Assembly: GCA_049523135.1 (NCBI GenBank) | Contig: JBEKNE010000001.1 | Span: 287,770 to 351,769, forward strand | DNA from: Candidatus Microgenomates bacterium | GTDB taxonomy: Bacteria > Patescibacteriota > Microgenomatia > UBA8517 | Length of the DNA stretch: 64,000 nt | Direction: 5' to 3' | Part shown: piece by piece, positions 25,211-64,000 of the stretch | How the letters are laid out: every line of letters starts with the position of its first letter | How positions within the stretch are numbered: position 1 is the stretch's first letter | Notes under the pieces: model-generated | Told to the model about the DNA's origin: nothing | The model's input: the letters and a program-made list of their open reading frames with translations, nothing else | Databases searched by the model: none | Position numbers and translations under genes: made by a program

Positions 25211-25275
25211 AATTGTGATTAATATTATACAACGTTGCGTAGGAGGGTATCGGTAGGGTATCATTTCTCTAGCGT

Positions 25276-26226: not shown

Positions 26227-26235
26227 ATTTAATAT

Positions 26236-28011: not shown

Positions 28012-28012
28012 A

Positions 28013-47255: not shown

Positions 47256-48933
47256 TTGGAAAAAGTGGCTTTTGATTTTGGTTGGGTCGATCACATGGTC
47301 TTTAACCATGGTCAGAAGTGGCTTAACTTATTCTTTTGGAATAGGCTTTTGGGGAGCAAACGGGCACGATGGAATTTGGCATATTGCACTAATTAAAAGT
47401 TTGGCTAAGGGAAATTTCCAAATGCCAATTTTTTCCGGTTGGGGAATACAAAATTACCATATCGGCTTTGATTTACTTCTTTCATATATAGTCAGGTTTA
47501 CCAAAATCTCCCCATCTTTCCTGTATTTTCAGATAGTTCCTCCACTGCTCGCTCTTTTTATAGGTTTTCTGACGTATAAATTTGTTTATCTTTGGAGAAA
47601 GTCTGAAGGTCAGTCACTTCTCGCAGTATTTTTCGTGTATTTCGGTGGAAGTTTTGGATGGCTTATCTCACTGATCAGCAATCAGGGTTGGGGAGGGGAA
47701 AGCATGTTCTGGTCTCAGCAGTCAATCTCCACCCTTATTAATCCCCCTTTTGCACTTTCTTTAATAATAATTCTTGCCGGATTAATTTATCTGAAAAAAT
47801 ATTTGGAAAAGAAATTGTTGTTAAATTTTTGTCTTACGGTTTTCTTTTTCGGCATATCGATTTTTATTAAAGTTTATGCAGGTCTTTTGGTGTTAATATC
47901 AATTTTGGTTGCTTCTATCTGGCAAGTTATCAAAAAGAAGAATTATTCTTTGCTTGGGATAACTTTAGTATCCGGGATAATATCTCTACTCTTATTTTTG
48001 CCGTTTAATAAATCGTCTGCCAATTTAATTTCCTTTAATCCTTTCTGGTTTTTACAAACAATGCTTATTGCGGCGGATCGGCTGGATTGGCAAAAGCTAT
48101 ATTCGGCAATGACAACTTATGCAAGCGGACATATTTGGATAAAAGCAGTGCTTGCTTATGGCTTGGCATTTATAATTTTTATTCTTGGTAATTTCGGTAC
48201 CAGGATTATCGCTCTAAAATCATTATTCAAAAAACCTAAAAAGTTATTATTGGCAGGCCCTATCGAAATCTTCATTTTTACTCTTATTGCGGCAGGTATA
48301 ACTGTACCCATGCTTTTTACTCAAAAAGGAACAGCATGGAATACGATCCAGTTTTTATATTACTCGCTGATTTTTGCAGGAATAGTGGCAGGGATAGAAA
48401 TAGATAGTTGGGTTAATAATTTATCTTTGTTCAAAAAGAGTTTAATAATAATTGTTTTTGTATTGATTACAATTCCGACCACTATTGCCTCAATGGATAA
48501 TTATTTCCCGGTTAAGCCTCAATCAATGCTTCCAACTAGTGAGGTTGAGGCTTTGAAATTTCTCTCGACCCAACCTGATGGAGTAGTTTTAACTTATCCG
48601 TTTGATGCGGATAAAGCTCTGGCGGCAAAACCCCCAAGACCTTTATATCTCTATACGTCCACAGCTTATGTTTCTGCTTTTTCCGGAAAGACAACCTTTT
48701 TAGAGGATCAGATAAATTTAGATATTATGCAATATCCCTGGCAGGAGAGAAGAGCTTCCGTTGAAGACTTCTTAAATATGGCAAATACTTTTACGGCCCA
48801 ATCTTTTCTCAAGGAAAACGATATATCATATGTTTACTGGATTACGGGTCAGCATGCAAAAATACCTGATGTTAATTTGAGTCTCATGCCTATATTTAAA
48901 AACAGTGATGTAACAATTTTCAAGGTAAAGTAA
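47245..48933 (+). CDS. Uncharacterised polytopic membrane protein, 'NGHDGxWH' family (family B; candidate polymerase/ligase or GT-C)
   Basis: Many TM helices plus a ~150-aa C-terminal soluble domain. Clear paralog of 54065..55903, sharing GANGHDGIWHIAL, FGGSFGW..GGESMFW and the C-terminal VVLTYPFD...AFSGKTTF motifs. Confidence 0.5.
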   Translation: MKLNWKKWLLILVGSITWSLTMVRSGLTYSFGIGFWGANGHDGIWHIALIKSLAKGNFQMPIFSGWGIQNYHIGFDLLLSYIVRFTKISPSFLYFQIVPPLLALFIGFLTYKFVYLWRKSEGQSLLAVFFVYFGGSFGWLISLISNQGWGGESMFWSQQSISTLINPPFALSLIIILAGLIYLKKYLEKKLLLNFCLTVFFFGISIFIKVYAGLLVLISILVASIWQVIKKKNYSLLGITLVSGIISLLLFLPFNKSSANLISFNPFWFLQTMLIAADRLDWQKLYSAMTTYASGHIWIKAVLAYGLAFIIFILGNFGTRIIALKSLFKKPKKLLLAGPIEIFIFTLIAAGITVPMLFTQKGTAWNTIQFLYYSLIFAGIVAGIEIDSWVNNLSLFKKSLIIIVFVLITIPTTIASMDNYFPVKPQSMLPTSEVEALKFLSTQPDGVVLTYPFDADKALAAKPPRPLYLYTSTAYVSAFSGKTTFLEDQINLDIMQYPWQERRASVEDFLNMANTFTAQSFLKENDISYVYWITGQHAKIPDVNLSLMPIFKNSDVTIFKVK

Positions 48934-48935
48934 AG

Positions 48936-50621
48936 ATGTTTAAAAATCTTATTAATAATAAAATATTTTGGGTAATCATTATTACACTCTTAACTATTCC
49001 GACATTTTGGAGCATGTGCAGAGCAGGCTACTTTCCGATGCAGGATGACCTTCAGGCTTTTAGGATTTATGAGATGGATAAATGCTGGCAGGATTTTCAA
49101 ATTCCCTGTCGTTGGGTTCCAGATGCCGGATATGAATATGGTTACCCGCAATTTAACTATTATCCTCCGAGTGTTTACTACGTGGGAGAAGCCATCCATA
49201 AAGTGGGATTTCAATTTATTGATTCAGTAAAAATACTCTTTGCATTAGGTTTTGTTCTGTCTGCACTTGCAATGTTCCTTTTGGTTAGCGATATTCTGGG
49301 GAATTTTCCAGGATTTGTGTCCGCTCTTATCTATACGTACGTTCCCTATAAAGCTGTTGATGTTTATGTAAGAGGTGACATGAGTGAATTTTGGTCAATG
49401 GTATTTTACCCGTTGGTTTTTTGGGCCGTTTATAAAATTATTAGGACAGCAAAGTGGAGGTATATAGCTTTGCTCGCCGTTTCTCTGGGACTGCTTTTTA
49501 TGACGCACCTTCTCATGTCTATGATTTTTTCTTTGTCGGCAGCCGTGTGGACTCTCTATTGGTTAATTAAAGAAAAGAAGTTCAAACGAATTTATAGAGT
49601 TATTGCCGGGGTTGCCTTGGGGTTTGGTTTTGCGGCATTTTATGTTTTACCAGTAATTCTTGAGAGGCAATATGCCCACACGGAGACACTTACTGAAGGC
49701 TATTTCGGTTATCAACAGCATTTTGTGAACCTTTATAAATTGTTTATTTCCAGAGAATGGGGGTATGGGTCTTCTGGCTTTCCTAATGAGAAGTTAAATC
49801 TTTCGACGGGGTTGATTCAGTGGATATTTGGGCTTATTACAATCGGAATTGCAAGTCTTTATATATTACTTAAGAAAAAGAAAGAGCATCTTTACCTTGT
49901 TCTCACTTTGGGTGCACTTGAGCTTTTTACTCTTTTTATGATTCATGTAAAGTCCAGTTTTATTTGGAATGCTATCCCAATTCTTTCCTGGCTGCAATTT
50001 CCGTGGCGGTTTTTGGCTATCAGTATTTTCCTTTTGGCAATTTTAGCCGGAATTGGGGTTTATCTTATACCAAAATTTAAAGTTTGGGTTGGGTTAGCAA
50101 TTATCTTAATAGCTTTCGTGCTTAACGTCGGTTATTTTATACCGAAGGCTTGGGAGAATATTACTGATGCTGACAAGTTCTCAGGAGTTTCGTGGCAAAA
50201 GGAGCTTACAATCAGCATTTTTGATTACTTGCCGATATATGCTAAACTTCCGCCGATAACCGCCGCTCCCGCTACTCCCGAGGTTCTTGAGGGAATGGCG
50301 ACGTTTTCAAATTATACAAAAGGCAGCGATTTCCAAAGGGGAATTATCAATACCGGTAAAAATGGAGCGCTAATAAGGCTTCCGCTTTTTGACTTCCCAG
50401 GGATGGTTGCAAAAATTGACGGAAATGTTGTTGCCCATGTTAACAATAATTGTCAGGGTGAGGAATTTTGCTTGGGGCTTATTACTTTTGAAGTACCTAG
50501 TGGAGAACATAAAATTGAAGTAGAATTAACAGATACGCTGGTGCGGAGGGTTGGCAATTATTTATCAATTGTTTCGTTAGTTGCCGTTGGCGGACTTTAT
50601 ATTTTTAAAAGAAAGAAATGA
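48936..50621 (+). CDS. YfhO-related short-form GT-C membrane protein (family C)
   Basis: First-loop FPMQDDLQAFRIYEMD. The C-terminal module FDFPGMVAKIDGNVV...EVPSGEHKIEVEL plus a terminal TM matches the C-terminus of the YfhO-like gene at 39382... Confidence 0.55.
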   Translation: MFKNLINNKIFWVIIITLLTIPTFWSMCRAGYFPMQDDLQAFRIYEMDKCWQDFQIPCRWVPDAGYEYGYPQFNYYPPSVYYVGEAIHKVGFQFIDSVKILFALGFVLSALAMFLLVSDILGNFPGFVSALIYTYVPYKAVDVYVRGDMSEFWSMVFYPLVFWAVYKIIRTAKWRYIALLAVSLGLLFMTHLLMSMIFSLSAAVWTLYWLIKEKKFKRIYRVIAGVALGFGFAAFYVLPVILERQYAHTETLTEGYFGYQQHFVNLYKLFISREWGYGSSGFPNEKLNLSTGLIQWIFGLITIGIASLYILLKKKKEHLYLVLTLGALELFTLFMIHVKSSFIWNAIPILSWLQFPWRFLAISIFLLAILAGIGVYLIPKFKVWVGLAIILIAFVLNVGYFIPKAWENITDADKFSGVSWQKELTISIFDYLPIYAKLPPITAAPATPEVLEGMATFSNYTKGSDFQRGIINTGKNGALIRLPLFDFPGMVAKIDGNVVAHVNNNCQGEEFCLGLITFEVPSGEHKIEVELTDTLVRRVGNYLSIVSLVAVGGLYIFKRKK

Positions 50622-52312
50622 AGAACTTTTCAAAAATTATAAAAGCTTTAAGTAAATTTTGGTGGGTTTTGATTTTGCTGTGTTTAATTCCTTCTTTCAA
50701 CAGGTTAATTCACAAAGGCTTTTTCCCGACTCAGGATTATATATATGTTGCCCGGATTTATGAGATGGATAAATCTCTCAAAGATGGGCAATTTCCGGTA
50801 AGGTGGGTTCCGGATTTTCGCTACGGTGAACCGCTTTTTAATTATTATGCGCCACTTCCTTATTATTTGGGATCTGTAATTCACACTTTCAATTTCAGTT
50901 TTCTTGATACCTCCAAGATTCTCTATGCACTGGGATTGATTCTTTCGTTTGGTACAATGTACATTCTTGGAAAAGAACTTTGGGGAAAGGCGGGGGGATT
51001 GATATCCGGCTTTGTTTATCTTTATGCTCCCTACCGGGCGGTGGATATTTTTGTTAGGGGAGATATTTCGGAGAGCTGGGTATTTGTATTTTTCCCGCTT
51101 TGTTTTTGGGCGGCTTTGAGATTGTCAAAAAAGGTTAACGGCAAAAATATTTTTCTTCTCGCAATATCTTTAGCCGGACTTTTCTTTACGCATAATGTGA
51201 TGACCATGCTTTTTGCTCCGTTTTTTGCGCTTTGGATACTTTATTTAGTTTGGGATAGAAAGAAATTTAGTCTGATTTATCCTCTGGTATTTTCTTCAGT
51301 TTTGGCCGCAGGTGTCGCAGCAAGCTTTCTTCTACCGGCATTTTTTGAAAGATCGTATATTCAGACGCAGCACTTGACGGGAGGATATTTTGATTTCAGA
51401 GGACATTTTGTGGAACTTAAGCAATTCTTTTCAACTTTCTGGGGATATGGCGCCTCGGTTTGGGGTCCGGAAGACGGCATGTCTTTCCAGGTTGGGGTAG
51501 TCCAATGGGTGACGATTGGGTTGACTCTTGTTTTTGCATTTATAAAAAGAAAGCAGATTATAAAAGATCGGACAATATATCTTCTCGTGGTGGTTTTTGC
51601 ATCATTTCTTTTCTCCCTATTTATGCAACATAACAGATCAACTTTTATTTGGCTTGCGGTACCCATGCTTCAATATGTCCAGTTTCCGTGGAGATTTCTG
51701 GCAATAACAGTTTTCTTTGTTGCGGTTTTTGCCGGAAGTTTGGCGAAATTACTACCCAAGTATAAATATGCAATATTAACTTTGGTGGTGATCTCTTGTA
51801 TTGCTTTTACTTATAACTATTTCAGACCCGAAAGTTATTATGATGATGCAACCGATGCTGGTTATATTTCCCAGCAAACCCTTTCGATTGACGATAAACT
51901 TCCCAAAGATTACTTGCCTATTTGGGTGAAAAAAATAACATCTCCAAAGATAACTCAACCGCAGATAGTCAGCGGCCAAGCGAATGCTTCGGATTATTCC
52001 GCAAGGAGCAACTCCGCAACCTTTAACATAAATGTTGAAAAGAATTCAGTAATTGATGTTCCTTTGACATATTTTCCAGGATGGGTAGCCGAACTAAACG
52101 GGAAGAAAATTTCTTTAATGGATCCGTCGGACCTTGGAATCATCAGATTTTCGGTACCGGAAGGAAATTATAAAATTTCTCTTTATTTGGGTAATACTCC
52201 GCTTAGGGAAGCAGCTAATATTATTTCCGTTATATCTATTCTGGGTTGTCTTGTCTTTGTTTTGTATAAAGGTCCATTATGTGTCTGGAGAAAAGGCGAT
52301 AAAAATAATTAA
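50618..52312 (+). CDS. YfhO-related short-form GT-C membrane protein (family C paralog)
   Basis: FPTQDYIYVARIYEMD, and the C-terminal YFPGWVAELNGKKISL...SVPEGNYKISLYL module plus terminal TM. Tandem paralog of 48936... Confidence 0.55.
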   Translation: MKNFSKIIKALSKFWWVLILLCLIPSFNRLIHKGFFPTQDYIYVARIYEMDKSLKDGQFPVRWVPDFRYGEPLFNYYAPLPYYLGSVIHTFNFSFLDTSKILYALGLILSFGTMYILGKELWGKAGGLISGFVYLYAPYRAVDIFVRGDISESWVFVFFPLCFWAALRLSKKVNGKNIFLLAISLAGLFFTHNVMTMLFAPFFALWILYLVWDRKKFSLIYPLVFSSVLAAGVAASFLLPAFFERSYIQTQHLTGGYFDFRGHFVELKQFFSTFWGYGASVWGPEDGMSFQVGVVQWVTIGLTLVFAFIKRKQIIKDRTIYLLVVVFASFLFSLFMQHNRSTFIWLAVPMLQYVQFPWRFLAITVFFVAVFAGSLAKLLPKYKYAILTLVVISCIAFTYNYFRPESYYDDATDAGYISQQTLSIDDKLPKDYLPIWVKKITSPKITQPQIVSGQANASDYSARSNSATFNINVEKNSVIDVPLTYFPGWVAELNGKKISLMDPSDLGIIRFSVPEGNYKISLYLGNTPLREAANIISVISILGCLVFVLYKGPLCVWRKGDKNN

Positions 52313-52315
52313 TCT

Positions 52316-53515
52316 GTGAAAAAATTATTAATTTTGGCAATTGTATTGCGAGTTTTGGTGGCAGCATTTTTTTTCCATCCGGATATTAAAACTTTTAACT
52401 ACCAAGCTTCATTTTTAAAACAAGGGGTTTTTAATATCTATTCTTATTTAGTTGACAATAAAGCGCGTTTGCCTCTGAAGGATAATTTCGTTTATTTTCC
52501 TCTAACATATTTTACCCTTGGTGGATATCAAGCCGCCATCTCGCCAATATTGGGTAGGGGATTTGATAGTTGGTTAGGAAATCCTGACTCCGCCACTATG
52601 GTTACCAATCCGAATATCTTCGGATATATGTTGGCCTTAAAATTGCCATATTTGGTTTTGGATATTCTGGTGGCATACATGCTTTTGAAGTTTATTGAGG
52701 ATAGGAAGAAGGCTCAAAAAGCATTTCTAATTTGGCTCTTTAATCCCATCACAATAATACTTATTTATGTTTATGGGAATATTGATATTTTTCCGGTTGT
52801 TCTTACTGTTTTTTCCCTCCTGCTTATTAAAAAAGACAAGCTGAAGTCTGCGGTAGCCATCTTGGGACTGGCTGCGGGTTTTAAGCTTTATCCTCTGCTT
52901 TTGGTGCCTTTTTTGGCTCTTGCCGGCAAAAATACTAAGGAAAAAATTTGGTTGGTGGCAATTCCCTTTTTAATATTCGGGGCAATATGTGTTCCATTTT
53001 TGTCTGGAGCTTTTGTTCAATCGGCGTTAATCTCCGGTCTTACAACAGGAACCTTTAGCCCGAGTTTTAGCGTTGGATTCGGCGAATCAATAATTGTGGG
53101 TTTGGTCGGAATGACGGTTCTTTTTTTCTATGAAATGCTGATAAATAAAAAACCCAACGTTTTAATTTATTGGATAGCGCTTTTGATGATCATCTTTTCT
53201 TTTTCCCATTTCCATATTCAGTGGCTTTTGTGGGTTGCACCGTTTATAACAATAATTTTGGCGGAGGATAGCGACCTTACCTTGTTAATTTCTTCAGTTT
53301 CAGTAATGGCAGTTGCGATCCCTCTTTTGTACGAAGATCGTTTTATGACGATGGGGCTTTTGCGTACCTTTAGTCTTTATTACGATATGTTGCCAACACC
53401 GTTTGTGGTTATACAAAGAGTGTTTGACCCTTATAATTTGCAGAGCATTTTACATTCTATGATGGCAGGTGGCACACTGGTTATGATATATAGACTATTT
53501 AAAGTAAAATCATGA
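52316..53515 (+). CDS. GT-C membrane glycosyltransferase, GT87/DUF2029-like
   Basis: GTG start; about 10 TM helices; AAGFKLYPLLLVP motif. Related to 30085..31275. Confidence 0.55.
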   Translation: MKKLLILAIVLRVLVAAFFFHPDIKTFNYQASFLKQGVFNIYSYLVDNKARLPLKDNFVYFPLTYFTLGGYQAAISPILGRGFDSWLGNPDSATMVTNPNIFGYMLALKLPYLVLDILVAYMLLKFIEDRKKAQKAFLIWLFNPITIILIYVYGNIDIFPVVLTVFSLLLIKKDKLKSAVAILGLAAGFKLYPLLLVPFLALAGKNTKEKIWLVAIPFLIFGAICVPFLSGAFVQSALISGLTTGTFSPSFSVGFGESIIVGLVGMTVLFFYEMLINKKPNVLIYWIALLMIIFSFSHFHIQWLLWVAPFITIILAEDSDLTLLISSVSVMAVAIPLLYEDRFMTMGLLRTFSLYYDMLPTPFVVIQRVFDPYNLQSILHSMMAGGTLVMIYRLFKVKS

Positions 53516-54108
53516 AAAAGCTTATTTGGTTTACCAGTATTTTTATTTTAGTTTTAATATTTATAGTCCCCGCAATTATGGTGTTAGGAATTAAGATAAT
53601 TCCTTCTGATGTTCAACCACCCCTTCAATATACACAAGATGTTTATCAGGATCTCTACATATCTCAGGAATTTACCAGTCTTTTACCAAATCTTACAGAT
53701 ATTGGTATGTCCATCAAAAACCCAAATCTTAAAGATCAAAATGATATAACTCTTTCTTTGTACGATCAGAATGGGCAGCTGGTTAGGACTTCAAAACTAA
53801 ATGGACTAAATATTGGCGATGGAGCTTTCGTTAAATTCCAATTTAGTCCTATTATAGATTCCCTGAATCAGAGATATTCGTTTACCATAATGTCTCCGTC
53901 CTCCTATCCTGAAGATTTATTTGAACTTTTTTACACGGATGACAAGCCTTCGTGGATAGGTCAGATGCAATTTAACGGTAAGAATGTGGTCGGAGGGCTT
54001 TCGTTTGTAACTTTTCACCAACCTGTAAGTAAGATTGGTTTGATTAAGAGTATCTATTCCGATTTCATTTCCAGATTTCTACATCTTCATTCTCAAAAAT
54101 CAATTTAA
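53512..54108 (+). CDS. Hypothetical membrane-anchored exported protein inside the GT-C array
   Basis: Start overlaps the upstream stop. N-terminal TM anchor followed by a beta-rich ~170-aa domain. The 3' end overlaps the convergent gene by ~44 nt. Confidence 0.4.
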   Translation: MKKLIWFTSIFILVLIFIVPAIMVLGIKIIPSDVQPPLQYTQDVYQDLYISQEFTSLLPNLTDIGMSIKNPNLKDQNDITLSLYDQNGQLVRTSKLNGLNIGDGAFVKFQFSPIIDSLNQRYSFTIMSPSSYPEDLFELFYTDDKPSWIGQMQFNGKNVVGGLSFVTFHQPVSKIGLIKSIYSDFISRFLHLHSQKSI

Positions 54109-55903
54109 GCCCTATCTTTGACGGGTCAACGACGGGTTTCATTGCTTTGGGGTAGTAAAGAATATTTGCACTGGATTTTTCAAAAGCCGATTTCACTTCA
54201 TTGATATTTTTATCCGAAAATACGGTAGTTTTTATATCCAACCTTGGTTTCCAATTATAGCCCATGATATCCACTTGTTCGTAGTCGTCCATGAAAGTTC
54301 TTCTATCCGAAAATGCGGCGAGGTAAGATGTATCAAACCAATCCCAAATATTTGGAGTATCTCCTCCGAGATTAAGATATGGATTGTATGGAGGAGTTAG
54401 TATTACCGAATTTTGTGGAGTATCTTTCTTTAAGAAATTTATTGCTTGCAGTTCCTGTGCGCTTATCATTGCGTAAGCCGGTCGGGAATAAAATTCATAA
54501 AGTAGGCCAACTTGAGTCGGAATCATTAAGAGAATGATCATAGGTATAAGTAGTTTGTATTTAGAAGTAAGCTTGGAAACTTCTATACCTGCCAGAATTC
54601 CGAAAAAGAGCAAAAAGTATTGTAAAAATTGAATGGTGTTACTAGCTATACCATTCTGCAGGAATAGGAGAGGAAAGATAATCGATAGTGCAATTGCAAC
54701 CTTAATAAATAAGTGTGTTTTCAAATACTGACGTAGCCCCAGGAATCTCATACCCAGGTTACCGAAAAAGAAAATCAAGAAGGCAATACCTTCGTACTCA
54801 ATTACTCTTAAAATAGATTTGATTCCTCCATGGGCTACGTAAAATTCCCTTCTGAGTTCCAAGTCTAGCCAATTAAGCCTAGAAGGTTCTACCACCATTG
54901 TCCGTATATACCACCAAGGTTGGAAAATTAGAAACGAGGTTGAATTGGAGGCGTTTGGAAAATATAGGAATACAGATAAAGCTCCACTTATGATGGTCAG
55001 GAATATAAGTGTTATATCCTTTTTCCTAAAAAACTTCCATAGACTATAAATGCCGAGGGAAATTAGAGCTATAATTCCGGCATAAACTTTAAAACTGACT
55101 AGGGTTCCAAAAAGGATTATACAAATTATAAATAAGATATTTCTTTTCTTTTTATCTTTTTCCCGCTCTAAACTTATCAAAAAATATAAAGCGGTAAAAA
55201 TCAGAAAATCCGATGCTATTTGAGGAGAATTTCCGCTTGCACTTTGTGGCTGGCTGGCCCAGAAAATACTTTCTCCGCCGATGGTTCTATTTTTTAGATA
55301 AGTAACGATAAATCCAAAACTTCCGGCGAAATAGGAAAAAATTGTTGACCAGATAGCAGCTGATTTTTCCCCATCAGCTTTTTTTATCAGAAAGTATGCA
55401 GATACACCAAAGAACAGAGAGTAAATAAAAGGAAATATGCGAAAATATAAATCAATGTTGTTAACCGGTGTATATTTACTTACAACCGCTGGCAATATAT
55501 CACTGAAGAAATGATAGTTGACGAGTTTTTCTCCGGCAAGAACAGGATTTTGGAAAGGCCAGCCTCTTTTTATTTCATTCATAAGGGCAATATGCCAGCT
55601 TCCGTCGTGTCCATTAGAACTCCAAAAAAGTAAGTCTCCTGCTTTATCAAAAGTTCCACTTGGGGAAATCACCGCTAATTGTCCCGCAATACCAACAACA
55701 AAGACCAAAATTGTAATGATGGCGGTTAAATCAAATTTGACCCTAATAGATTTAACTATTTTAATGAATGACTTTGCTGCCAGTATTACCCCGATAATTA
55801 CAATTGGGATAATAAGATATAATCCGTGAATTAATATTAAAAGATAGGAGATAAGTGTTAATGTGGCAAATGCAGCAATTCCACTCATTAGTATTTCTTC
55901 CAT
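54065..55903 (-). CDS. Uncharacterised polytopic membrane protein, 'NGHDGxWH' family (family B paralog)
   Basis: SSNGHDGSWHIAL, FAGSFGF...GGESIFW and a C-terminal VILTPPYN...AFSDRRTF domain, collinear with 47245... Start set at the internal ATG (MEEILMSG...); the longest ORF begins with TTG at 55936. Confidence 0.5.
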   Translation of the reverse strand: MEEILMSGIAAFATLTLISYLLILIHGLYLIIPIVIIGVILAAKSFIKIVKSIRVKFDLTAIITILVFVVGIAGQLAVISPSGTFDKAGDLLFWSSNGHDGSWHIALMNEIKRGWPFQNPVLAGEKLVNYHFFSDILPAVVSKYTPVNNIDLYFRIFPFIYSLFFGVSAYFLIKKADGEKSAAIWSTIFSYFAGSFGFIVTYLKNRTIGGESIFWASQPQSASGNSPQIASDFLIFTALYFLISLEREKDKKKRNILFIICIILFGTLVSFKVYAGIIALISLGIYSLWKFFRKKDITLIFLTIISGALSVFLYFPNASNSTSFLIFQPWWYIRTMVVEPSRLNWLDLELRREFYVAHGGIKSILRVIEYEGIAFLIFFFGNLGMRFLGLRQYLKTHLFIKVAIALSIIFPLLFLQNGIASNTIQFLQYFLLFFGILAGIEVSKLTSKYKLLIPMIILLMIPTQVGLLYEFYSRPAYAMISAQELQAINFLKKDTPQNSVILTPPYNPYLNLGGDTPNIWDWFDTSYLAAFSDRRTFMDDYEQVDIMGYNWKPRLDIKTTVFSDKNINEVKSAFEKSSANILYYPKAMKPVVDPSKIGLKLIFENEDVEIWK

Positions 55904-55929
55904 ATATAAATTATATATAATAGTAGCAT

Positions 55930-57345
55930 ATGGCAAAGAAGTTGTGGCTAATTCTTCTCGGAATTGTAACTCTGGGGTTTGTTATAAGGGTTTACAAAAT
56001 TCAATCCCTTCCTATGTATGGTGACGAGTTGACGATGGTTTATGATGAATACTCCATTCTTAAAACCGGAATGGATGCAACAGGTCAAAAATTTCCCTTA
56101 ACTTTCAAGATGGGAGCAGGACGACCTGGTGGGTATATTTATTTTTCTGTTCCATTTGTTGCAGTTTTCGGACCCACGCTTTGGGGAGAAAGAACACTAT
56201 CCCTACTTTCAGGTCTTGGGATTATAGTCCTGATGTATTTCTTGGGTAAAAAACTTTTTAACGAAAAAGTTGGGATAATAGCATCTCTTCTTACTGCTGT
56301 TTGTCCTTGGGACATTTATCTAAGTCGGGCCGGTTTTGAGGCGCATTTTGCTTTATTTTTGGCGCTTTTGGGAGTAGTATTTTTTCTTGATAAAAAATAT
56401 ATTGGGTGGGCAATTGCATGGGGACTCACCATTTTTACGTATCCAACCTTTAAATTAACTCTTCCTTTAATGTTAATTTTTCTAGTTTTTTGGAAAGGAA
56501 TTAAAGATATTGTTAAGGATAAAATTTTTTGGATAGGAATTGTTGTTCTTGCAGTTTTCGGATTAATAATCGGTTATCAAACGTTTTTTGCGGGAAGCGA
56601 GCAAAGATTTTTCTCACTAAATATTTTTTCTGATGAAACCATAAAAAACAACATTATTCAGACTGTTGACAATGACAGGAATTTTGCGACATTGCCAATA
56701 GTTTTTAAGGATATATTTATAAATAGAGAAATTGAATATGGAAGGCTTCTTCTTGATAATTATGTAGCCAATCTTTCTCCGGATTTTCTATTTTTGAGGG
56801 GTGATGGACAACCACGCGACAATCCGGGAGAAATGGGAATGCTTTATTTAATTGATTTTCCGCTCTTGATTGCAGGTTTGGTTCTTCTTTGGAAAGATGA
56901 AAGAAAAAAATTTACTCTTCTTTTGGCTTGGATTTTAATTACCCCTTTAGCAACAATGTTTTTTATGAATCCGCATGCACTGAGAAATGATTTGATGATA
57001 CCACCACTGCTTGTAATTATTTCCTACGCTTTTACAAAGATATCAAGAAAGTTTACTTATGTTGCAATCGCTCTTATTGCAATTCAACTAATTTATATAT
57101 TAGTACATATTTACAATATTGCCCCTGCAAAGTTTGTATCGTTTTGGTCGGCGGATGCGGAATCGGTTGCTTTGAAAGCTATCCAGGCTCAAAAATCGGG
57201 ACAAAAAGTAACCTTAAATGTAACAAAAGTAGATAATATTGAATATGCATATGAAGTTTATGCGAAACTAGATCCGCGGGAAGTTATTGCCCAGTCGGGC
57301 AAATTTCCTAAAGTTTATGGCAATGTTACAATTACTGACAAATAA
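55930..57345 (+). CDS. GT-C membrane glycosyltransferase, ArnT/PMT-like (family A2)
   Basis: First-loop YGDELTMVYDEYSIL motif; polytopic; 471 aa. Confidence 0.7.
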   Translation: MAKKLWLILLGIVTLGFVIRVYKIQSLPMYGDELTMVYDEYSILKTGMDATGQKFPLTFKMGAGRPGGYIYFSVPFVAVFGPTLWGERTLSLLSGLGIIVLMYFLGKKLFNEKVGIIASLLTAVCPWDIYLSRAGFEAHFALFLALLGVVFFLDKKYIGWAIAWGLTIFTYPTFKLTLPLMLIFLVFWKGIKDIVKDKIFWIGIVVLAVFGLIIGYQTFFAGSEQRFFSLNIFSDETIKNNIIQTVDNDRNFATLPIVFKDIFINREIEYGRLLLDNYVANLSPDFLFLRGDGQPRDNPGEMGMLYLIDFPLLIAGLVLLWKDERKKFTLLLAWILITPLATMFFMNPHALRNDLMIPPLLVIISYAFTKISRKFTYVAIALIAIQLIYILVHIYNIAPAKFVSFWSADAESVALKAIQAQKSGQKVTLNVTKVDNIEYAYEVYAKLDPREVIAQSGKFPKVYGNVTITDK

Positions 57346-58849
57346 TCTCAAAAAATTGAAGATATTTGTAAAATCAAAATGGTTTAAAATTTTTGTATTT
57401 GCGTTGGTCTTTGTCTTTACTTTTATCCTTCGTGCTCATAATTATGAAAGAACACCAACTTCTAACCATCTCGATGAACAGTTATATGCACTTTCCGGGA
57501 TTTATTTGGTAGAAACCGGGACACCGGTTTCCTGGTCAACCTTAAATTATCCCAAAAGTGCTGAAGTCTTTTCTGGACTTTTAACTTATAAAGGAGGACA
57601 ACCATCAGCTTACGTGACACTTTTCAGACCCTGGCTTGATGAGCCACCTCTGTTCTCTCTTTTGGTAGGGGAGTCAGCGCATATATTCCATGTAGACAGA
57701 ACCGGTTGGATACCCTCTTCATATATCAGATTTCCGATAGTTATAATTTCTGCTTTTACCTCAATACTGATTTTTTTGATAGCCATGGAAGTTAGCGGAT
57801 TTTGGACGGGTATTTTGACAATGCTTATCTACGGAACTGAACCAATTATGGTTTTTGCATCACGTACGGCAATGCCCGAGACTCTTATCGCATTTTTCTT
57901 TTGCTTAATGATCTATTTGCTTCTGAAGTTTATGAAGAATAAAAGTTTTTGGTATATTGTTCCTATCCCAGTTTTTGCAGGACTTTCTGGACTTTCCAAA
58001 CCAACTGGTTATTTTATTTTAGGTCTTGCAATCTATGTTGTTTTTTCAGAGTTTTATAAACTGAAACCTATTAAATGGGACAAGGTAGTTAAATATTTAT
58101 TATATTTGGTGCTAGCTACTGTTCCATTTGTTTTGATATACATTTGGTATGGGAATCACTTCAATTCTGAAATATTCAAGAGTATAGTCTTAACTCAGGG
58201 TTTTAGACCTGCTGGTTTTAATAGTCTTGCTTGGTTTTTCATAACTCCCAGTGCAGATACAACAATTCTTAGAAGTGCTTGGTATGTTTTTTGTCTTGTA
58301 TCAGCTGCTTTCTTTATCTTTCAGCCAAAAGAAAAAGTAAAGCAGCTTATTAGTCTCAGCTTTATCTATTGGGTGGTGGTTGTAATGCTTTCAGGGGGTG
58401 AAAATGATCTGCTTTCTTGGTATAGATTTCCTGCTTTTCCATTCCTTGCAATACTCGGGGCATGGGGGGTTGAATATATTTATGAAAAAGCTGACTTTTT
58501 TGCATCTTTCTTTGGCGTAGGATTTTTGCTGGGTAGCAGAATGCTTTTAGTAAATGCTTTTAGGCCAAATGTGTCTGCTGATACCTTTCGCTTTTCTTTT
58601 TCGATGCTTTTAGCACCGTCTTTACTTAACACAATCTTTAATAGGAGGTGGCTTAAGTTTCTGAGTCGGATTGTTATCGTTGGAGTGGTAGTTGTAGGAA
58701 TGTGGTGGAATGTTAAATATATTTACAATGCTTACGAACTTGATTGTGAGAGTCAGACTTGTCCCATGGTACCCTCAACAATTCTTTCCAGCCTGCATTA
58801 TCCTGTTATCTGGCGCTTCTTTGTACTTGGAGATTCGGTTCTGCACTAA
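57317..58849 (+). CDS. GT-C membrane glycosyltransferase, ArnT/PMT-like (family A2)
   Basis: HLDEQLYALSGIYL loop motif and multiple TM helices. Start at the internal ATG; it overlaps the upstream gene by ~29 nt. Confidence 0.65.
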   Translation: MAMLQLLTNNLKKLKIFVKSKWFKIFVFALVFVFTFILRAHNYERTPTSNHLDEQLYALSGIYLVETGTPVSWSTLNYPKSAEVFSGLLTYKGGQPSAYVTLFRPWLDEPPLFSLLVGESAHIFHVDRTGWIPSSYIRFPIVIISAFTSILIFLIAMEVSGFWTGILTMLIYGTEPIMVFASRTAMPETLIAFFFCLMIYLLLKFMKNKSFWYIVPIPVFAGLSGLSKPTGYFILGLAIYVVFSEFYKLKPIKWDKVVKYLLYLVLATVPFVLIYIWYGNHFNSEIFKSIVLTQGFRPAGFNSLAWFFITPSADTTILRSAWYVFCLVSAAFFIFQPKEKVKQLISLSFIYWVVVVMLSGGENDLLSWYRFPAFPFLAILGAWGVEYIYEKADFFASFFGVGFLLGSRMLLVNAFRPNVSADTFRFSFSMLLAPSLLNTIFNRRWLKFLSRIVIVGVVVVGMWWNVKYIYNAYELDCESQTCPMVPSTILSSLHYPVIWRFFVLGDSVLH

Positions 58850-58895
58850 TTTGTCGGAAAAATTTTACTTGCAGTTTTGAAGCTGGTACCATTGA

Positions 58896-60554
58896 ATGAG
58901 AATGAAAAAAGTCATTTACCCCGCGCTTTTAAGTTTGGTTTTGGTCTTAGCTTTCTTTTTGAGGTTCTACAAACTCACCAGCGATCCGCCATCTCTGAAT
59001 TGGGATGAGGTTGCAATCGGATACAATGCCTATTCAATCCTGAAAACAGGGAAAGATGAGTGGGGAGTAAAGCTTCCTTTAAATTTTGAATCATATAGCG
59101 AATATAAACTTCCTACCCAGATCTATGCCTCAATACCGGCGATTGCTATATTTGGGCTTAATGACTTTTCGGTGAGAATAACTCCTGTGATTTATGGTGT
59201 ACTAACGGTTCTGTCTGTATATTTTTTGACTTACGCCCTTTTTAAGAAAAAAAGCGTTGCTCTACTTACCGCTTTTTTGGTTGCAACTTCAGCTTGGCAT
59301 ATTCAGCTCACACGTGCGTCTTTCGAATCTTCATTTTCGGTTCTTTGGGTAGTTCTTGGACTTTGGCTCTTAATTTTGGGATTTAAAAAACCCAAGTATT
59401 GGATAGTTTCTGCCATTCCATTTGCGATTTCTGTTTATACATATAATAGTGCTAGGGTTTTTACTCCACTTTTCCTTCTTGCGATTCTATTGATTTACAG
59501 AAAAGAATTTCTTAAAAACGTCAAGTATGCTGTCGCTGCCACCATTTTACTTTTTGTTTTGGTTGCACCTCTGATACCAATTATTCTTAATGGTCAGGCA
59601 ACCGATCGGTACAAGCTAGTTAGTATTACCAACGACCCAGGTCTTATTCCGCGAATTGATCAGGCCAGGAATAACTCAAAATTACCACCTCTTTTGACTA
59701 AACTTGTCTATAACAGAGTAACTTATGTAAGTATCTATTTTACCGAAAATTACTTGGCCCATTTTACGCCAAACTTTCTTTTTATTAGTGGTGCTGGGCA
59801 TAAGCAGCATAATGTTCAGGGAATGGGGGAACTCTACCTTTTTCAAGCGCCGTTTATTCTCGTAGGACTATATTTTCTTTTCAAAAAGAAAGTGCCTTTC
59901 AGGTGGCTTCTACTAAGTTGGCTCTTGATTGCTTTTATTCCTGTTGCCACAACCGATGATAGTATTCCCAATGCTTTGCGAACTATTATTGCTGAACCCT
60001 TTTACGAACTTATAACTGCATATGGAATTTATGAGGTGTACTTGTGGGCTAAAGATAAAAAAATAACAAGTTATGTTCTCTGGGGGGCAACAATAATTCT
60101 TGCTTCTTACAATTTTTATCATTACCTTTATCTTTTTTATGACGTCTATCCATATAAATATTCTGAAGATTGGCAATATGGATATGAACAGGCGGTTTCA
60201 TATATTCAAAAAAATTACAGTAAGTATGATTTGATTGTTTTTACCCGAACTTATGGTGAGCCATATATGTTTACTCTTTTTTATCTCAAATATGATCCTG
60301 CTGAATTTCAAAATAATCCGAACTTGGACCGTTTTATAGCCAACAATTGGGAATGGGTTTTGAAGTTTGATAAGTTTTATTTTCCCGATTTGGGAGATCC
60401 CGGAACGCACTATCAGGATATAGTTAAAGCAAATCCTGGCAAAAAGATTCTTTTTATAGGTAAACCTGGGGACTTTCCGGCGGGTACTCCGATTTTGGAA
60501 CAAATAAATTTCTTGGATGGAAAAGGTGACTTCCAGATTACAGATATAAAATGA
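58896..60554 (+). CDS. GT-C membrane glycosyltransferase, ArnT/PMT-like (family A2, tandem paralog 1 of 3)
   Basis: LNWDEVAIGYNAYSIL loop motif. Conserved C-terminal segment DWQYGYEQAVSYI...GEPYMFTLFYLKYDP shared with the next two genes. Confidence 0.7.
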   Translation: MRMKKVIYPALLSLVLVLAFFLRFYKLTSDPPSLNWDEVAIGYNAYSILKTGKDEWGVKLPLNFESYSEYKLPTQIYASIPAIAIFGLNDFSVRITPVIYGVLTVLSVYFLTYALFKKKSVALLTAFLVATSAWHIQLTRASFESSFSVLWVVLGLWLLILGFKKPKYWIVSAIPFAISVYTYNSARVFTPLFLLAILLIYRKEFLKNVKYAVAATILLFVLVAPLIPIILNGQATDRYKLVSITNDPGLIPRIDQARNNSKLPPLLTKLVYNRVTYVSIYFTENYLAHFTPNFLFISGAGHKQHNVQGMGELYLFQAPFILVGLYFLFKKKVPFRWLLLSWLLIAFIPVATTDDSIPNALRTIIAEPFYELITAYGIYEVYLWAKDKKITSYVLWGATIILASYNFYHYLYLFYDVYPYKYSEDWQYGYEQAVSYIQKNYSKYDLIVFTRTYGEPYMFTLFYLKYDPAEFQNNPNLDRFIANNWEWVLKFDKFYFPDLGDPGTHYQDIVKANPGKKILFIGKPGDFPAGTPILEQINFLDGKGDFQITDIK

Positions 60555-62122
60555 AAAGAATAGAAATTATTTTTTTGTCGGTTATCGTAGTTATTGCAGC
60601 CGTTATACGTTTTATCGCAATAACCAGTATTCCTCCTTCATTGGATTGGGATGAGGCCTCAGTTGGATACGATGCTTATTCGATTTTACAAACCGGCAAA
60701 GACCAGTGGGGAAAGATTTTTCCTATTGTTTTTCAATCTTTCGGTGAATTTAAATACCCTATCCATATTTATTTTACGGCTTTGACTACGTGGATATTCG
60801 GATATGGCACTTTTTCGGTTAGAGTCGGGTCGGCATTTTTTGGAGTTATAAATATTGTACTGTTATTTTTCCTCGTTTGGATTTTGACGAAGAGTAAAAC
60901 GGTTGCATTTACGGCAAGTTTACTTATGGCATTTTCCCCTTGGGCGATTCAATTCTCCAGAGTTAATTGGGAAACAAATTTTGGGCTTTTCTTTTTCTTT
61001 TTGGGGATAATTTATTTCTTTAAAGGTTTGGAAAAGAAAAGATGGTTTATCCCTCTTTCTTTTCTGCTTTTTGGGATCGACCTTTTTACTTATAATGCTG
61101 CAAAGGTTTTTATACCTTTATTTGTTTTTGCTTTGGTAGTTATTTATTGGAAAGATCTACTTCAGAATAAATTTTATTCAATAATAGGTGCCTTGATATT
61201 TTTTGGCTTTATCTTAGTTAATGTTTTTCAGCCCGACTTATCTGGCATTGGTCGTTTGGGTCAAGTAGTTTTTCCGGACAGTGAGATTAAGTCCACATAC
61301 CTATATAAATTGACAAAGCACGAAAAAGTAGGCATGCTTCAGCTTGTCGCTCAAAATTATTTATTCCACTTTACACCTCAATTCCTTTTTATTTCGGGTG
61401 ATTCCAACCCAAGACATTCAATACAAACAGTAGGGGAACTTTACTGGTTTGATGCCATATTATTGCCTATTGGTTTCTATTACATAATTAGAAATAACAA
61501 GAAATGGTCATGGCTTTTACTTGTCTGGTTTTTTCTGGCTCCAATTCCGGCATCAATAGCGACGGAAGCTCCACATGCATCGCGTACAATGTTTGCAATT
61601 GGAGGGTGGCAGGTTGTTTCGACATTGGGTTTTTGCTGGTTGTTGGACTTAGCTAAAAAGCTTAAATTCCAATTGTGGTTTGTTACAATTTCAACTTTAG
61701 TGTTTTTACTCTTTACCGAAAATTATCTTTTTAAATATTTTGGGGCTTATTCCGTAAACTATTCGAGTGATTGGCAATATGGTTATATGAAAATATTTAC
61801 GGGCTATAAAAATGATTTTGGCAGATACAACCACATCGTTGTCTCCGATCAAGATGGACAGCCATATATTTTTGCCCTTTTTTACCTTAAATATAACCCT
61901 GATTTGTTCAGGGAAACCGTTGTCTATAACCCGGAAAACGATTGGGGAGCCTCGACCGTAAAAAGTTTTGATAAGTTTGTATTTAAAAAGGTTGAAAATT
62001 CTGATTTACAAAAAAATACTTTAATTTTTGCTACGCCTATGGATATGATTACAAATGCGACACCATTGGGAGTTATTAGGAATTTGGACGGAAGCGTAGC
62101 TTTTTGGGTTTATTCTAAATGA
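60551..62122 (+). CDS. GT-C membrane glycosyltransferase, ArnT/PMT-like (family A2, tandem paralog 2 of 3)
   Basis: LDWDEASVGYDAYSIL and DWQYGYMKIF...GQPYIFALFYLKYNP motifs; ATGA overlap with the upstream gene. Confidence 0.7.
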   Translation: MKRIEIIFLSVIVVIAAVIRFIAITSIPPSLDWDEASVGYDAYSILQTGKDQWGKIFPIVFQSFGEFKYPIHIYFTALTTWIFGYGTFSVRVGSAFFGVINIVLLFFLVWILTKSKTVAFTASLLMAFSPWAIQFSRVNWETNFGLFFFFLGIIYFFKGLEKKRWFIPLSFLLFGIDLFTYNAAKVFIPLFVFALVVIYWKDLLQNKFYSIIGALIFFGFILVNVFQPDLSGIGRLGQVVFPDSEIKSTYLYKLTKHEKVGMLQLVAQNYLFHFTPQFLFISGDSNPRHSIQTVGELYWFDAILLPIGFYYIIRNNKKWSWLLLVWFFLAPIPASIATEAPHASRTMFAIGGWQVVSTLGFCWLLDLAKKLKFQLWFVTISTLVFLLFTENYLFKYFGAYSVNYSSDWQYGYMKIFTGYKNDFGRYNHIVVSDQDGQPYIFALFYLKYNPDLFRETVVYNPENDWGASTVKSFDKFVFKKVENSDLQKNTLIFATPMDMITNATPLGVIRNLDGSVAFWVYSK

Positions 62123-63720
62123 AAAATTATATTAAATATCTACTACTGACATTAATAGTAATTGGGGCTGCTTTTTTAAGGATCTATAAACTTACTCAAG
62201 TGCCTTCATCTCTTAACTGGGATGAAGTAGCAGCAGGGTATAATGCTTTCACAATTGCCAATTGGGGTGAGGATGAGTATGGCAACAAATTTCCTCTTGT
62301 TTTTAGATCATTTGGGGACGATAAACATCCAGTCCATATTTATATAACTGCATTTTTCGTAAAGATTTTTGGTTTGAATGAATTTACAACAAGATTTCCC
62401 AGTGCTCTTTTTGGAACTTTGACAGTGGTTGCAATTTATTTTCTTATAAAATTGATGTTTAAAAACGAACTTGCTGGTATTCTCTCTGCTCTTTTTCTGG
62501 CAATTTCACCTTATCACTTGCAATTTTCCAGAGGCCTTTGGGAGATTACATTTGCTGTATTTTTTTATATTTTAGCTCTACTACTTTTCTATCTAGGAAT
62601 TAAAAAGAAATCTTGGCTTCTGCCCCTGTCTTGTTTCAGTTTTGGGATTTCATTTTTCTCTTATCACTCATCAAAAGTTATGGTGCCTCCGACAATTCTT
62701 CTTTTGTCCGTTTTATATTTTAAAGACATAATTAAAAACAAAACAGCACTTATTTTCAGCGGTTTGGTAATACTTCTTTTTACAGGCTTAACTATCCATG
62801 ACCCAAGGATTTTAGGTTTTGCCAGGATCGAGCAAAATCAAATACCCCAAAGTGAACTTGATGCAACCGTTCTGTACAAAAAAACTCACAATCAGTATTT
62901 GGCTATGGTGGAGGTTACTCTGAATCATTATAAAACATATTTCTACCCAAGTTATTTGTTTGTCACGGGGGATAGTAATCCTAGGAATGCCGTGCAGAAC
63001 TTTGGAGAGTTTTATAAAGTTGATGCATTTTTAGTTTTGGCTGGAATTGTGTATCTTATTTGGAAGAGGCCAAGAGAAGGATTGGTTTTGGCATTATGGC
63101 TTGTCTTGGCTCCTATTGCGGCTGCTTTTGCAGGTGGTCCACAAAATGCAATTAGAGCCGGTTTTATGATGGGTGGTGTTAATATCCTTGCTGCTTTAGG
63201 GGCAAGTGGTTTTATTAGTTTTATTAAGAATAAAATTTGGTATGTTGTTGCTGGTCTTATTATTTTAGTTCCTCTTTTTACGGAATTTGGAATGTATTTG
63301 AAATATTACTATACGGAATACTCGAATAAATATGCGATCGAATGGCAGTATGGCATGAAACAGATTGTTGAATATTTAAAAGCTAACCCAAATTACATTC
63401 AAGTGTATATGGATAATATTAGACAGCAGCCGTATATCTTTTTCTTGTACTACTTTAAGACACCTCTTCCGGATTTGCTCAATACAGTACATTATGACGA
63501 CAGCCGGTCAAAAAGTTATAACACAGTAGTATCCTTTGGAGAATATCAGTTCGGTGGAAACTGGAATATAATAGATAGCTATCCAAACGATGATGTTTTG
63601 TACATAATGACACCAAGCTATTATGGGGGACTGAGGTATATCAGTCAATTTGATGTTAAAGATTTGATTAAATATCCAAACGATGCTAACGCGTTTTATA
63701 TTGTAGAAGCAAAACAATGA
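62119..63720 (+). CDS. GT-C membrane glycosyltransferase, ArnT/PMT-like (family A2, tandem paralog 3 of 3)
   Basis: LNWDEVAAGYNAFTI and EWQYGMKQIV...QQPYIFFLYYFKTP motifs; ATGA overlap with the upstream gene. Confidence 0.7.
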   Translation: MKNYIKYLLLTLIVIGAAFLRIYKLTQVPSSLNWDEVAAGYNAFTIANWGEDEYGNKFPLVFRSFGDDKHPVHIYITAFFVKIFGLNEFTTRFPSALFGTLTVVAIYFLIKLMFKNELAGILSALFLAISPYHLQFSRGLWEITFAVFFYILALLLFYLGIKKKSWLLPLSCFSFGISFFSYHSSKVMVPPTILLLSVLYFKDIIKNKTALIFSGLVILLFTGLTIHDPRILGFARIEQNQIPQSELDATVLYKKTHNQYLAMVEVTLNHYKTYFYPSYLFVTGDSNPRNAVQNFGEFYKVDAFLVLAGIVYLIWKRPREGLVLALWLVLAPIAAAFAGGPQNAIRAGFMMGGVNILAALGASGFISFIKNKIWYVVAGLIILVPLFTEFGMYLKYYYTEYSNKYAIEWQYGMKQIVEYLKANPNYIQVYMDNIRQQPYIFFLYYFKTPLPDLLNTVHYDDSRSKSYNTVVSFGEYQFGGNWNIIDSYPNDDVLYIMTPSYYGGLRYISQFDVKDLIKYPNDANAFYIVEAKQ

Positions 63721-64000
63721 TTAAACTCTCAGTTATTCTGGCTACGAGGAATGAAGAAGAAAATATTGGCAGGTGTTTAGAGTCTGTCAAAAATATTGTC
63801 GATGAGATAATTGTGGTTGATGAAAATTCAACTGATAAAACCCGCGAAATTGCCGAAAAAAATGGAGCGAAAGTATTTTTGGAACCCCATCATGATATTT
63901 TTCATATAACTAAAGAAAAGGCTTTGGAAAAAGCGACAGGGGATTGGATACTTCAACTTGATGCGGATGAGGTTGTAACCTCTGAACTGTCGAAAGAAAT
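63717..64000 (+). CDS. GT2 glycosyltransferase, WaaE/KdtX-like; 3' end outside window
   Basis: MIKLSVILATRNEEENIGRCLESV...DEIIVVDENSTDKTREIAEKNGAKVF...ILQLDADEVV; paralog of 36806... ATGA overlap with the upstream stop. Confidence 0.7.
   Translation, partial: MIKLSVILATRNEEENIGRCLESVKNIVDEIIVVDENSTDKTREIAEKNGAKVFLEPHHDIFHITKEKALEKATGDWILQLDADEVVTSELSKE

Follow-up and report, generated by a model that had tools for sequence, protein, structure and literature searches.

Near the end of a 64,000-nucleotide stretch of contig JBEKNE010000001.1 from a Candidatus Microgenomates bacterium (assembly GCA_049523135.1), referred to here as the window, five consecutive plus-strand genes encode large membrane proteins of the glycosyltransferase C (GT-C) class. 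They are designated D, X, A, B, and C in their order along the strand. The last three, A, B, and C, constitute a real protein subfamily. A and C belong to separate orthogroups whose order is conserved across Davies-/Woesebacteria-type genomes of the candidate phyla radiation (CPR), and the gene that lies between them is exchangeable. All are members of the PMT_2/GT-C_A superfamily and orthologs of no characterized enzyme.

Relationships, family, and fold of the paralogs

The relationship among A, B, and C emerges from an all-against-all BLASTP comparison of the 15 large membrane proteins encoded in the surrounding island of sugar-related genes. Identity is 37% for B and C (E ~1e-103), 33% for A and B (E ~1e-92), and 32% for A and C (E 1e-65 to 1e-69). 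D, with ~30% identity to the trio (E 1e-32 to 1e-45), falls into the same subfamily by this comparison. The other GT-C genes reach at most 28% identity to the trio or to D, with E values of 1e-8 or weaker. Within the window each of the three proteins finds its best match in another of the trio and is less similar to the remaining GT-C proteins, which makes them a genuine subfamily. The description "closely related" in the original prediction is nevertheless overstated. Similarity of the DNA survives only in patches of 65–150 nucleotides at 69–81% identity, located around the two motif regions described below, and its near absence elsewhere rules out recent duplication or gene conversion of the trio. 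X has no BLASTP match below 1e-3 and no phmmer match among the other GT-C genes of the island, and HHalign aligns it to the family profile with 97% probability (E 8e-11).

Two motifs had been quoted for the trio, and both occur in all three proteins, with one correction in B. The N-terminal motif reads LNWDEV..GYNA(Y/F).I in A and C and LDWDEA..GYDAY.I in B, which thus has LDWDE rather than LNWDE. Near the C terminus each protein carries (D/E)WQYG ... PY(M/I)F.L(F/Y)Y(L/F)K.

Each of the five proteins exceeds the gathering cut-off of Pfam PMT_2 (PF13231; 26.1 bits), with scores of 35.8 for D, 47.0 for X, 43.8 for A, 42.1 for B, and 66.4 for C. Five consecutive GT-C genes are therefore present as predicted, but the number is an arbitrary cut, since the region from 31986 to 63720 carries 15 GT-C-like genes that together occupy ~24 kb. 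Scores against Pfam PMT (PF02366; cut-off 22.7 bits) lie above threshold for X (30.0), A (31.6), and B (27.2) and below it for C (18.0), and D has no match. Curated NCBIfam models give far lower scores relative to their thresholds: the best match to the bacterial Pmt equivalog NF058602 (cut-off 800 bits) is 22.6 bits, for B; the ArnT equivalog NF009784 (cut-off 567 bits) gives 22.3 for A and 29.9 for B; and Agl23 (TIGR03663; cut-off 126.25 bits) gives 18–44 bits. It is on the strength of these scores that the genes are assigned to the superfamily and not to any characterized orthologous group. The earlier label "ArnT/PMT-like" is thus right for fold and Pfam family and wrong for orthology. The proteins lack a periplasmic C-terminal domain of the ArnT type, and no arnA/B/D/E/F-type genes were found with them in the window or its downstream continuation, a result that does not extend to lipid A genes in the rest of the genome; the neighbors are instead members of glycosyltransferase families 2 and 4 (GT2 and GT4), an epimerase, and further GT-C genes. 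The enzyme class is already known and the genes already carry the public label "GT39 family": B is 100% identical to an NCBI protein of Candidatus Microgenomates bacterium named "glycosyltransferase family 39 protein," which is encoded on contigs as long as 780 kb.

An AlphaFold2 model of B built from a 95-sequence alignment has a predicted local distance difference test score (pLDDT) of 96.3 and a predicted template modeling score (pTM) of 0.94. All significant Foldseek matches of this model are GT-C enzymes, including AglB, PglB, ArnT, STT3, Pmt4, ALG9/12, and AftB; AftA, AftD, EmbA/B, and PimE are also found, as are the paralog heterodimers Pmt1–Pmt2 (6p25) and EmbA–EmbB (7bvc/7bvf). ArnT has the highest Foldseek TM-score, 0.56–0.58. 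The structural comparison figures are 23.9 for STT3B, 23.5 for Pmt4, 23.3 for ALG12, 22.0 for AglB, and 21.6 for ArnT, with 337–405 residues aligned in each case. We take the aligned part to be the membrane core, short of the final ~120 residues, and this multi-helix core of the model matches solved GT-C_A enzymes. The fold does not tell ArnT-, PMT-, and oligosaccharyltransferase-type enzymes apart. Sequence searches reach less far: phmmer with A alone finds nothing among PDB sequences at E ≤ 1, and the only PDB sequence matched by the 95-sequence family profile is ArnT (5ezm, E 9.6e-6).

Numbered as in B, the invariant polar residues of the family are D34, E35, D51, K68 (arginine in D), R91, R137, E141, Y181, R235, and R345. 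They are kept at 87–100% in clades A, B, C, and D and in the clade of a shorter paralog, B', introduced below. D34 and E35 lie directly after the first transmembrane helix and form the acidic loop-1 motif of GT-C enzymes; by homology with those enzymes the loop would face outward. No paralog looks like a pseudoenzyme, and all are predicted from their residues to be active.

The WQYG and PYIF motifs fall within a domain of ~120 residues that follows the last membrane helix. Modeled alone, this domain adopts a small α/β fold with a pLDDT of 93.8. It belongs to no Pfam family, has no convincing fold relative in the PDB, and its profile finds no PDB sequence at E ≤ 10. Against 1.84 billion cluster representatives, the same profile matches 2,825 clusters (50% identity) at E ≤ 1e-3 and 1,107 at E ≤ 1e-10. 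Among the best 150 of the 2,825, the match is always C-terminal, in proteins of ~500–585 residues or in fragments. The original prediction recognized the C-terminal block from neither ArnT nor PMT, in keeping with the absence of an ArnT-type domain. Its suggestion of a lineage-specific soluble domain holds insofar as the α/β domain is soluble and without catalogued relatives, and fails insofar as the domain is spread across the family, beyond this lineage. Because of the cluster matches and the lack of Pfam and PDB relatives, the domain is regarded as uncatalogued and typical of the subfamily rather than of this organism alone. In D it is short and diverged and lacks both motifs, although the loop-1 Asp-Glu pair is kept. 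By analogy with other GT-C enzymes, the domain would be expected on the outer side, where it may take part in binding the acceptor.

Orthogroups, gene order, and the middle position

A scan of GTDB-species genomes returned at least 583 relatives, and 74 loci were kept for analysis. Nearly all come from Davies-, Woese-, Shapiro-, Chisholm-, Levy-, or Collierbacteria or from unnamed Patescibacteria, and a locus typically carries a tandem array of two to seven family members. Many of the records bear the title "uncultured Gammaproteobacteria," which we regard as a placeholder. Family members also occur in two bins labeled as non-CPR, "Candidatus Acidiferrales" (L069, a 40-kb contig) and "Actinobacteria" (P0037, partial); mis-binning or horizontal transfer could account for them.

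Best-hit comparison assigned 268 family members to the four window paralogs, and a neighbor-joining tree was computed from 270 sequences and 498 columns with 100 bootstraps. The A clade has 49 members, one per locus (bootstrap 89), and the C clade 44, likewise one per locus (bootstrap 100). A is the most conserved member of the trio, its orthologs being mostly 55–64% identical to A of the window and in one locus (L001) 83%; orthologs of C are 43–70% identical to C. Since orthologs (43–70%) are more alike than paralogs (32–37%), the duplication must be older than the divergence of these lineages. Thus the proposal that the array arose by serial duplication followed by specialization is supported by the single-copy A and C orthogroups, with the amendment that duplication was ancient and not local. 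The putative corollary, sequential addition of several sugars by the trio, fits the data, and a heteromeric complex would fit them equally well.

The middle gene is unstable. The B type occurs in only five loci (bootstrap 99), and B groups first with C in 91 of 100 bootstraps. In ~31 other loci the position between A and C is held by B', a protein of ~450–475 residues that forms a clade of 36 (bootstrap 85). Its C-terminal domain is truncated, with 76 residues after the conserved tryptophan as against 116–127 in the others. The order A, middle gene, C is fixed in more than 35 loci. A B-like gene, 43% identical to B and sister to the B + C clade, occurs together with a short B' gene on one Daviesbacteria contig (L007; 2783–4378 and 7946–9403). 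Because both are present there, B and B' are paralogs; the same locus and the grouping of B with C rule out B' as a fast-evolving ortholog of B. The arrangement in L007 may be an intermediate of gene replacement. Upstream of A, orthologs of D (40–67% identity) are found in ~15 loci, and in 10 of 38 loci an ortholog of X separates D from A.

The genes that follow the trio are conserved as well. In the 31 loci with enough flanking sequence, a GT2 gene lies directly after C in every case, a GT4 gene comes next in 30, and a GT-C gene of family PF04188 (Mannosyl_trans2) comes next in 28. For the window, the continuation can be read from a Logan contig (L080) that is identical to positions 50551–64000 and extends beyond the end; most of its downstream genes have overlapping or abutting starts. 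The PpgS-like GT2 and DUF2304 genes lie 2.2 kb beyond the window end. Further on, the 395-residue multi-pass protein shows no BLAST similarity to the PF04188 protein at the equivalent position of other loci. The loop behind its first helix contains an N-D-D motif, and the protein may add a sixteenth GT-C-like enzyme to the operon.

Gene organization and the sugar island

The array begins divergently from the minus-strand gene at 54065–55936. The start of X is ambiguous: the mechanical open reading frame begins at a TTG at 57287, and public gene calls begin at an ATG at 57317 or 57323. With any of these starts X overlaps the end of D in another frame by 23–59 nucleotides (23–29 for the ATGs), unlike the 4-nucleotide overlaps of later junctions. 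Such ATGA overlaps had been claimed for all three genes of the trio. They are present at B and C, and again at the GT2 gene that overlaps the stop of C, but A follows the preceding stop after a 46-nucleotide spacer. From these junctions we propose a single operon in which A, B, and C are translated together with the GT2 and GT4 genes. Scans of the 53.5–64 kb interval found no enrichment of promoter-like sites (25 against 35 expected) or terminator-like sites (11 against 8.6 expected) and are uninformative.

Table 1. Coordinates of features in the window and in its continuation on contig L080. Single positions are gene starts.
Feature	Position	Strand	Remarks
RmlA-like nucleotidyltransferases	17867, 20464
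RmlB-like dehydratase	21252
RmlC	22319–22852		PF00908, 197 bits
RmlD	22849–23718
Rhamnosyltransferase- and GlfT1-like GT2s	25276–28011
GT2 fused to C-terminal GtrA/DPMS membrane domain	28666–29814	+	PF04138
PMT_2 genes upstream of D	31986, 34506, 42730, 44218		Pfam; D, X, A, B, and C belong to the same family
YfhO	39382	+	Pfam
MOP/Wzx flippase	45753–47255	+	Pfam/NCBIfam
Membrane protein without Pfam family	47245–48933	+	33% identical to 54065–55936; HHalign to family profile 94–95% for the pair
PTPS_related/YfhO paralog pair	48936, 50618	+	40% mutually identical
GT87/PIG-M-like	52316	+
Divergent membrane protein without Pfam family	54065–55936	−	612–623 aa; HHalign 94%, E 1.6e-7, 352 columns
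D	55930–57345	+	471 aa; GT-C (PMT_2); first gene of plus-strand operon
X	57287/57317–58849	+	508–510 aa; divergent PMT_2/PMT-type GT-C
A	58896–60554	+	552 aa; GT-C with full C-terminal α/β domain
C-terminal region of A	~60081–60551	+
B	60551–62122	+	523 aa; ATGA start overlaps stop of A; variable middle position
C-terminal domain of B	61736–62119	+	residues 396–523; α/β fold with WQYG and P-Y-I-F-x-L-x-Y motifs
C	62119–63720	+	533 aa; ATGA start overlaps stop of B
C-terminal region of C	63304–63717	+
GT2, downstream gene 1	63717–64000, cut by window end	+	283 aa in full contig (L080); Glycos_transf_2, 76 bits
GT4, downstream gene 2	L080		328 aa
Epimerase, downstream gene 3	L080		312 aa
PpgS-like GT2, downstream gene 4	L080		223 aa
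DUF2304, downstream gene 5	L080		110 aa
GT2, downstream gene 6	L080		261 aa
Multi-pass protein, downstream gene 7	L080 17726–18913		395 aa; ~7.2–8.4 kb past window end; no Pfam family
Methyltransferase, downstream gene 8	L080

Nine of the GT-C-like genes lie on the plus strand between 31986 and 53515, together with GT2 and GT4 enzymes and the flippase. Eight GT2 genes are found between 25276 and 42733, and one more starts at 63717; a single GT4 gene is interspersed among the island genes. The best NCBIfam matches of the GT2 proteins at 28666, 31264, and 36005 are synthases of the ArnC, PgfS, PpgS, or AglJ type. The protein at 28666, which joins a GT2 to a GtrA/DPMS domain, could be a synthase–flippase fusion for a polyprenyl-phosphate sugar. 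The plus-strand section from 15673 to 31275 is devoted to nucleotide sugars and cytoplasmic glycosyltransferases and includes an epimerase; to judge from their sequences, the genes from 17867 to 23718 probably make up a complete dTDP-L-rhamnose (deoxythymidine diphosphate rhamnose) pathway.

Several other features of the window deserve mention. Two proteins of the island have no Pfam match: one of 396 residues on the minus strand (30085–31275), and one of 198 residues with a single N-terminal membrane helix (53512–54108). The first 15 kb hold housekeeping genes, among them aminoacyl-tRNA synthetases, SecA, Tgt, a release factor, and FtsEX. FtsE and FtsX are followed, within the region 12342–17570, by a gene product (13921–15126) whose match to a PcsB-type coiled coil falls slightly short of the Pfam cut-off, and a secreted CAP-domain protein (16665–17570) adjoins the start of the island. 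Nearly all genes of the window are on the plus strand. The guanine–cytosine skew is positive in all 2-kb bins from 1 to 64000 (0.01 to 0.27), so that the cumulative skew climbs unbroken; one paper has reportedly described an unusual strand composition disparity in a Microgenomates genome.

Proposed function and comparison with known systems

That A and C are single-copy orthogroups in a fixed order speaks for non-redundant roles of the paralogs, and the match between the island's parts list and known transmembrane glycosylation systems (PMC8035078) leads to the proposal of one sugar transferred per paralog. Candidates for the synthase (28666, 31264, 36005, and the downstream PpgS-like GT2, all scoring below cut-off), for the flippase (the GtrA domain and the Wzx protein at 45753), and for the GT-C enzyme are all in the island. 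The preferred interpretation, to which we assign a probability of about 0.5, is that A, the middle paralog, and C each move one polyprenyl-phosphate-linked sugar, non-redundantly, to an extracytoplasmic acceptor. Cytoplasmic GT2 enzymes of the ArnC/PgfS/PpgS/GtrB type would attach single sugars to polyprenyl phosphate, and the GtrA-domain protein, the Wzx flippase, or both would flip the lipid-linked sugars. Outside, each GT-C paralog would transfer one sugar by means of the loop-1 Asp-Glu pair and the conserved Lys/Arg, with the C-terminal α/β domain assisting acceptor selection. The three paralogs would differ in donor, acceptor, or linkage. The acceptor favored here would be a rhamnose-containing secondary cell-wall glycopolymer, or a lipid-anchored glycan, made by the same island; the rmlA–D-like genes and rhamnosyltransferase-like GT2s at 17.8–28 kb speak in favor of it. 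The analysis shows the fold, family, retained residues, orthogroup structure, synteny, and island content; which class of donor is used, on which side the C-terminal domain lies, what the acceptor is, and whether each paralog handles one sugar are inferred.

Several observations weigh against this interpretation. All matches of the GT2 proteins to polyprenyl-phosphate-sugar synthases are far under the curated NCBIfam cut-offs, and the rml genes, at ~35 kb from the trio, are weakly linked to it. The outward placement of the C-terminal domain is by analogy with ArnT, PglB, and AglB, a Kyte-Doolittle helix count being too crude to decide it. Deeper nodes of the tree are weak, the grouping A + B + C having a bootstrap of 22. 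The donor, acceptor, and sugar proposed for this subfamily are all putative. Finally, the scores of X, A, and B above the cut-off of Pfam PMT, the protein O-mannosyltransferase family, are compatible with a protein acceptor. PMT- or Pgf-like A, B, and C enzymes might then use polyprenyl-phosphate donors to glycosylate Ser/Thr of proteins that are secreted or displayed on the surface (pilins, adhesins, or S-layer proteins, for example), and would differ in protein substrate or build a glycan stepwise. Protein O-glycosylation is a serious rival, though on balance a doubtful one given the low scores against the bacterial Pmt model. An acceptor anchored in the membrane is another alternative. In mycobacteria the Emb, Aft, and Pim GT-C enzymes act on lipoarabinomannan and arabinogalactan, and the paralogs could similarly elongate or branch a lipoglycan or glycolipid outside the cell. 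The many GT-C genes in one island, which include GT87-, PIG-M-, and PF04188-type mannosyltransferase-like proteins, are in keeping with such a role, as are the structural matches to AftA, AftB, AftD, EmbA/B, and PimE and the presence of a PpgS-like GT2 paired with DUF2304; the mycobacterial PpgS/Rv3632 pair supplies a GT-C enzyme. We nonetheless consider lipoglycan assembly unlikely.

The fixed order can also be read differently. If A, the middle paralog, and C were subunits of one complex, as in Pmt1–Pmt2 or EmbA–EmbB, conserved order in more than 35 loci and ATGA coupling would serve stoichiometric assembly and not three independent steps, and solved paralog heterodimers are indeed among the structural matches. 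This hetero-oligomer is again a serious rival but rather improbable. The middle subunit swaps between B and B', whose C-terminal domain is truncated, and a few loci do without it, A and C being directly adjacent in L036, for instance; an exchangeable or missing gene argues against an obligate three-part complex. Furthermore, all members keep the full set of catalytic residues, and none looks like a pure scaffold. That the genes are tandem, co-oriented, and of one family might suggest redundant or decaying duplicates produced by recent amplification without functional differentiation. This explanation deserves next to no credence: it is contradicted by the orthogroup analysis, in which A and C are single-copy across 44–49 genomes, and it accords poorly with paralogs of 32–37% identity that share almost no DNA similarity and whose reading frames and catalytic residues are all intact.

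A bolder extension of non-redundant transfer by the three paralogs, and one we hold to be quite improbable, is a dedicated extracytoplasmic glycan-assembly machine specific to Microgenomates-type CPR bacteria and made up of A, C, and the exchangeable middle paralog, whose three GT-C active sites and putative acceptor-binding C-terminal domain would build a defined multi-sugar structure from polyprenyl-phosphate sugars outside the membrane. Were it true, exchange of B for B' would reprogram the surface glycan, for example in host attachment or phage evasion, and GT-C arrays would be the main glycan-building strategy of these reduced genomes. With their tiny genomes, CPR bacteria, or Patescibacteria, live in attachment to other cells; to our knowledge, little has been learned of their envelope chemistry. 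The commitment of ~24 kb to 15 GT-C enzymes, with a conserved module among them, suggests that elaborate sugar chemistry at the outer face of the membrane is a core trait. Heterologous expression, structure determination, and glycan analysis could start from the orthogroups, the conserved residues, and the C-terminal domain, and variation of the cell surface may be governed in part by the exchangeable middle gene.

Among characterized enzymes, ArnT (CAZy GT83; PDB 5ezm/5f15), the undecaprenyl-phosphate-4-amino-4-deoxy-L-arabinose (L-Ara4N):lipid A transferase, resembles the trio in its GT-C_A fold, in size (~540 residues), and in having a soluble domain C-terminal to the membrane core. The conserved K-x-P sequence after loop 1 aligns with K-P-P of ArnT. 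The PMT/POMT enzymes (GT39; Pmt1–Pmt2 6p25, Pmt4 9e61) can be aligned structurally over 337–349 residues but differ from the trio, which has no MIR domain and carries another soluble domain at its C terminus. The mycobacterial embC-embA-embB genes (GT53) are likewise a tandem trio of GT-C paralogs with C-terminal extracytoplasmic domains and a polyprenyl-phosphate sugar donor, and EmbA and EmbB form a heterodimer (PDB 7bvc/7bvf). In the Pgf system of Streptococcus mutans (PgfS, PgfM1, PgfE, and PgfM2; bioRxiv 10.1101/2022.10.10.511621) the membrane glycosyltransferases are also paralogous, at 38.5% identity, have an extracellular α/β domain, and are encoded with a GT2 and an epimerase, as here. 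PgfM1 and PgfM2 are described as YfhO/GtlB-like, and it is by description that they are set against the trio; PgfS is among the best NCBIfam matches of the island GT2 proteins, yet at 65–77 bits against a cut-off of 500.

The closest parallel in logic is provided by the multi-component transmembrane glycosylation systems that decorate teichoic acids and rhamnose polysaccharides of Gram-positive bacteria. In these a glycosyltransferase of the GT-A class makes an undecaprenyl-phosphate-linked (C55-P) sugar, a GtrA- or Wzx-type flippase exports it, and a wall polymer receives the sugar from a GT-C enzyme (PMC8035078). CsbB/GtcA/YfhO, GtlA/GtlB, and GacI/J/K/L combine synthase, flippase, and GT-C enzyme in the way proposed for the island, whose candidates lie beside rhamnose-polysaccharide genes, and GtlB and GttB are also PMT_2 proteins (PMC8035078). 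None of the island components is orthologous to the characterized parts, their NCBIfam scores being far below cut-off. A full-text literature search for CPR GT-C arrays found no description of this operon within the collection searched. The finding is a well-supported refinement of the annotation of "GT39 family" proteins, not a new kind of system. What is new is the ancient module of A, B or B', and C, conserved together with GT2 and GT4 genes in Davies-/Woesebacteria-type CPR, the interchange of its middle paralog, the uncatalogued C-terminal domain family, and the close packing of GT-C genes into a reduced genome: where the known multi-component systems have one GT-C enzyme per modification and few per genome, this island has 15, with a three-paralog sub-operon.

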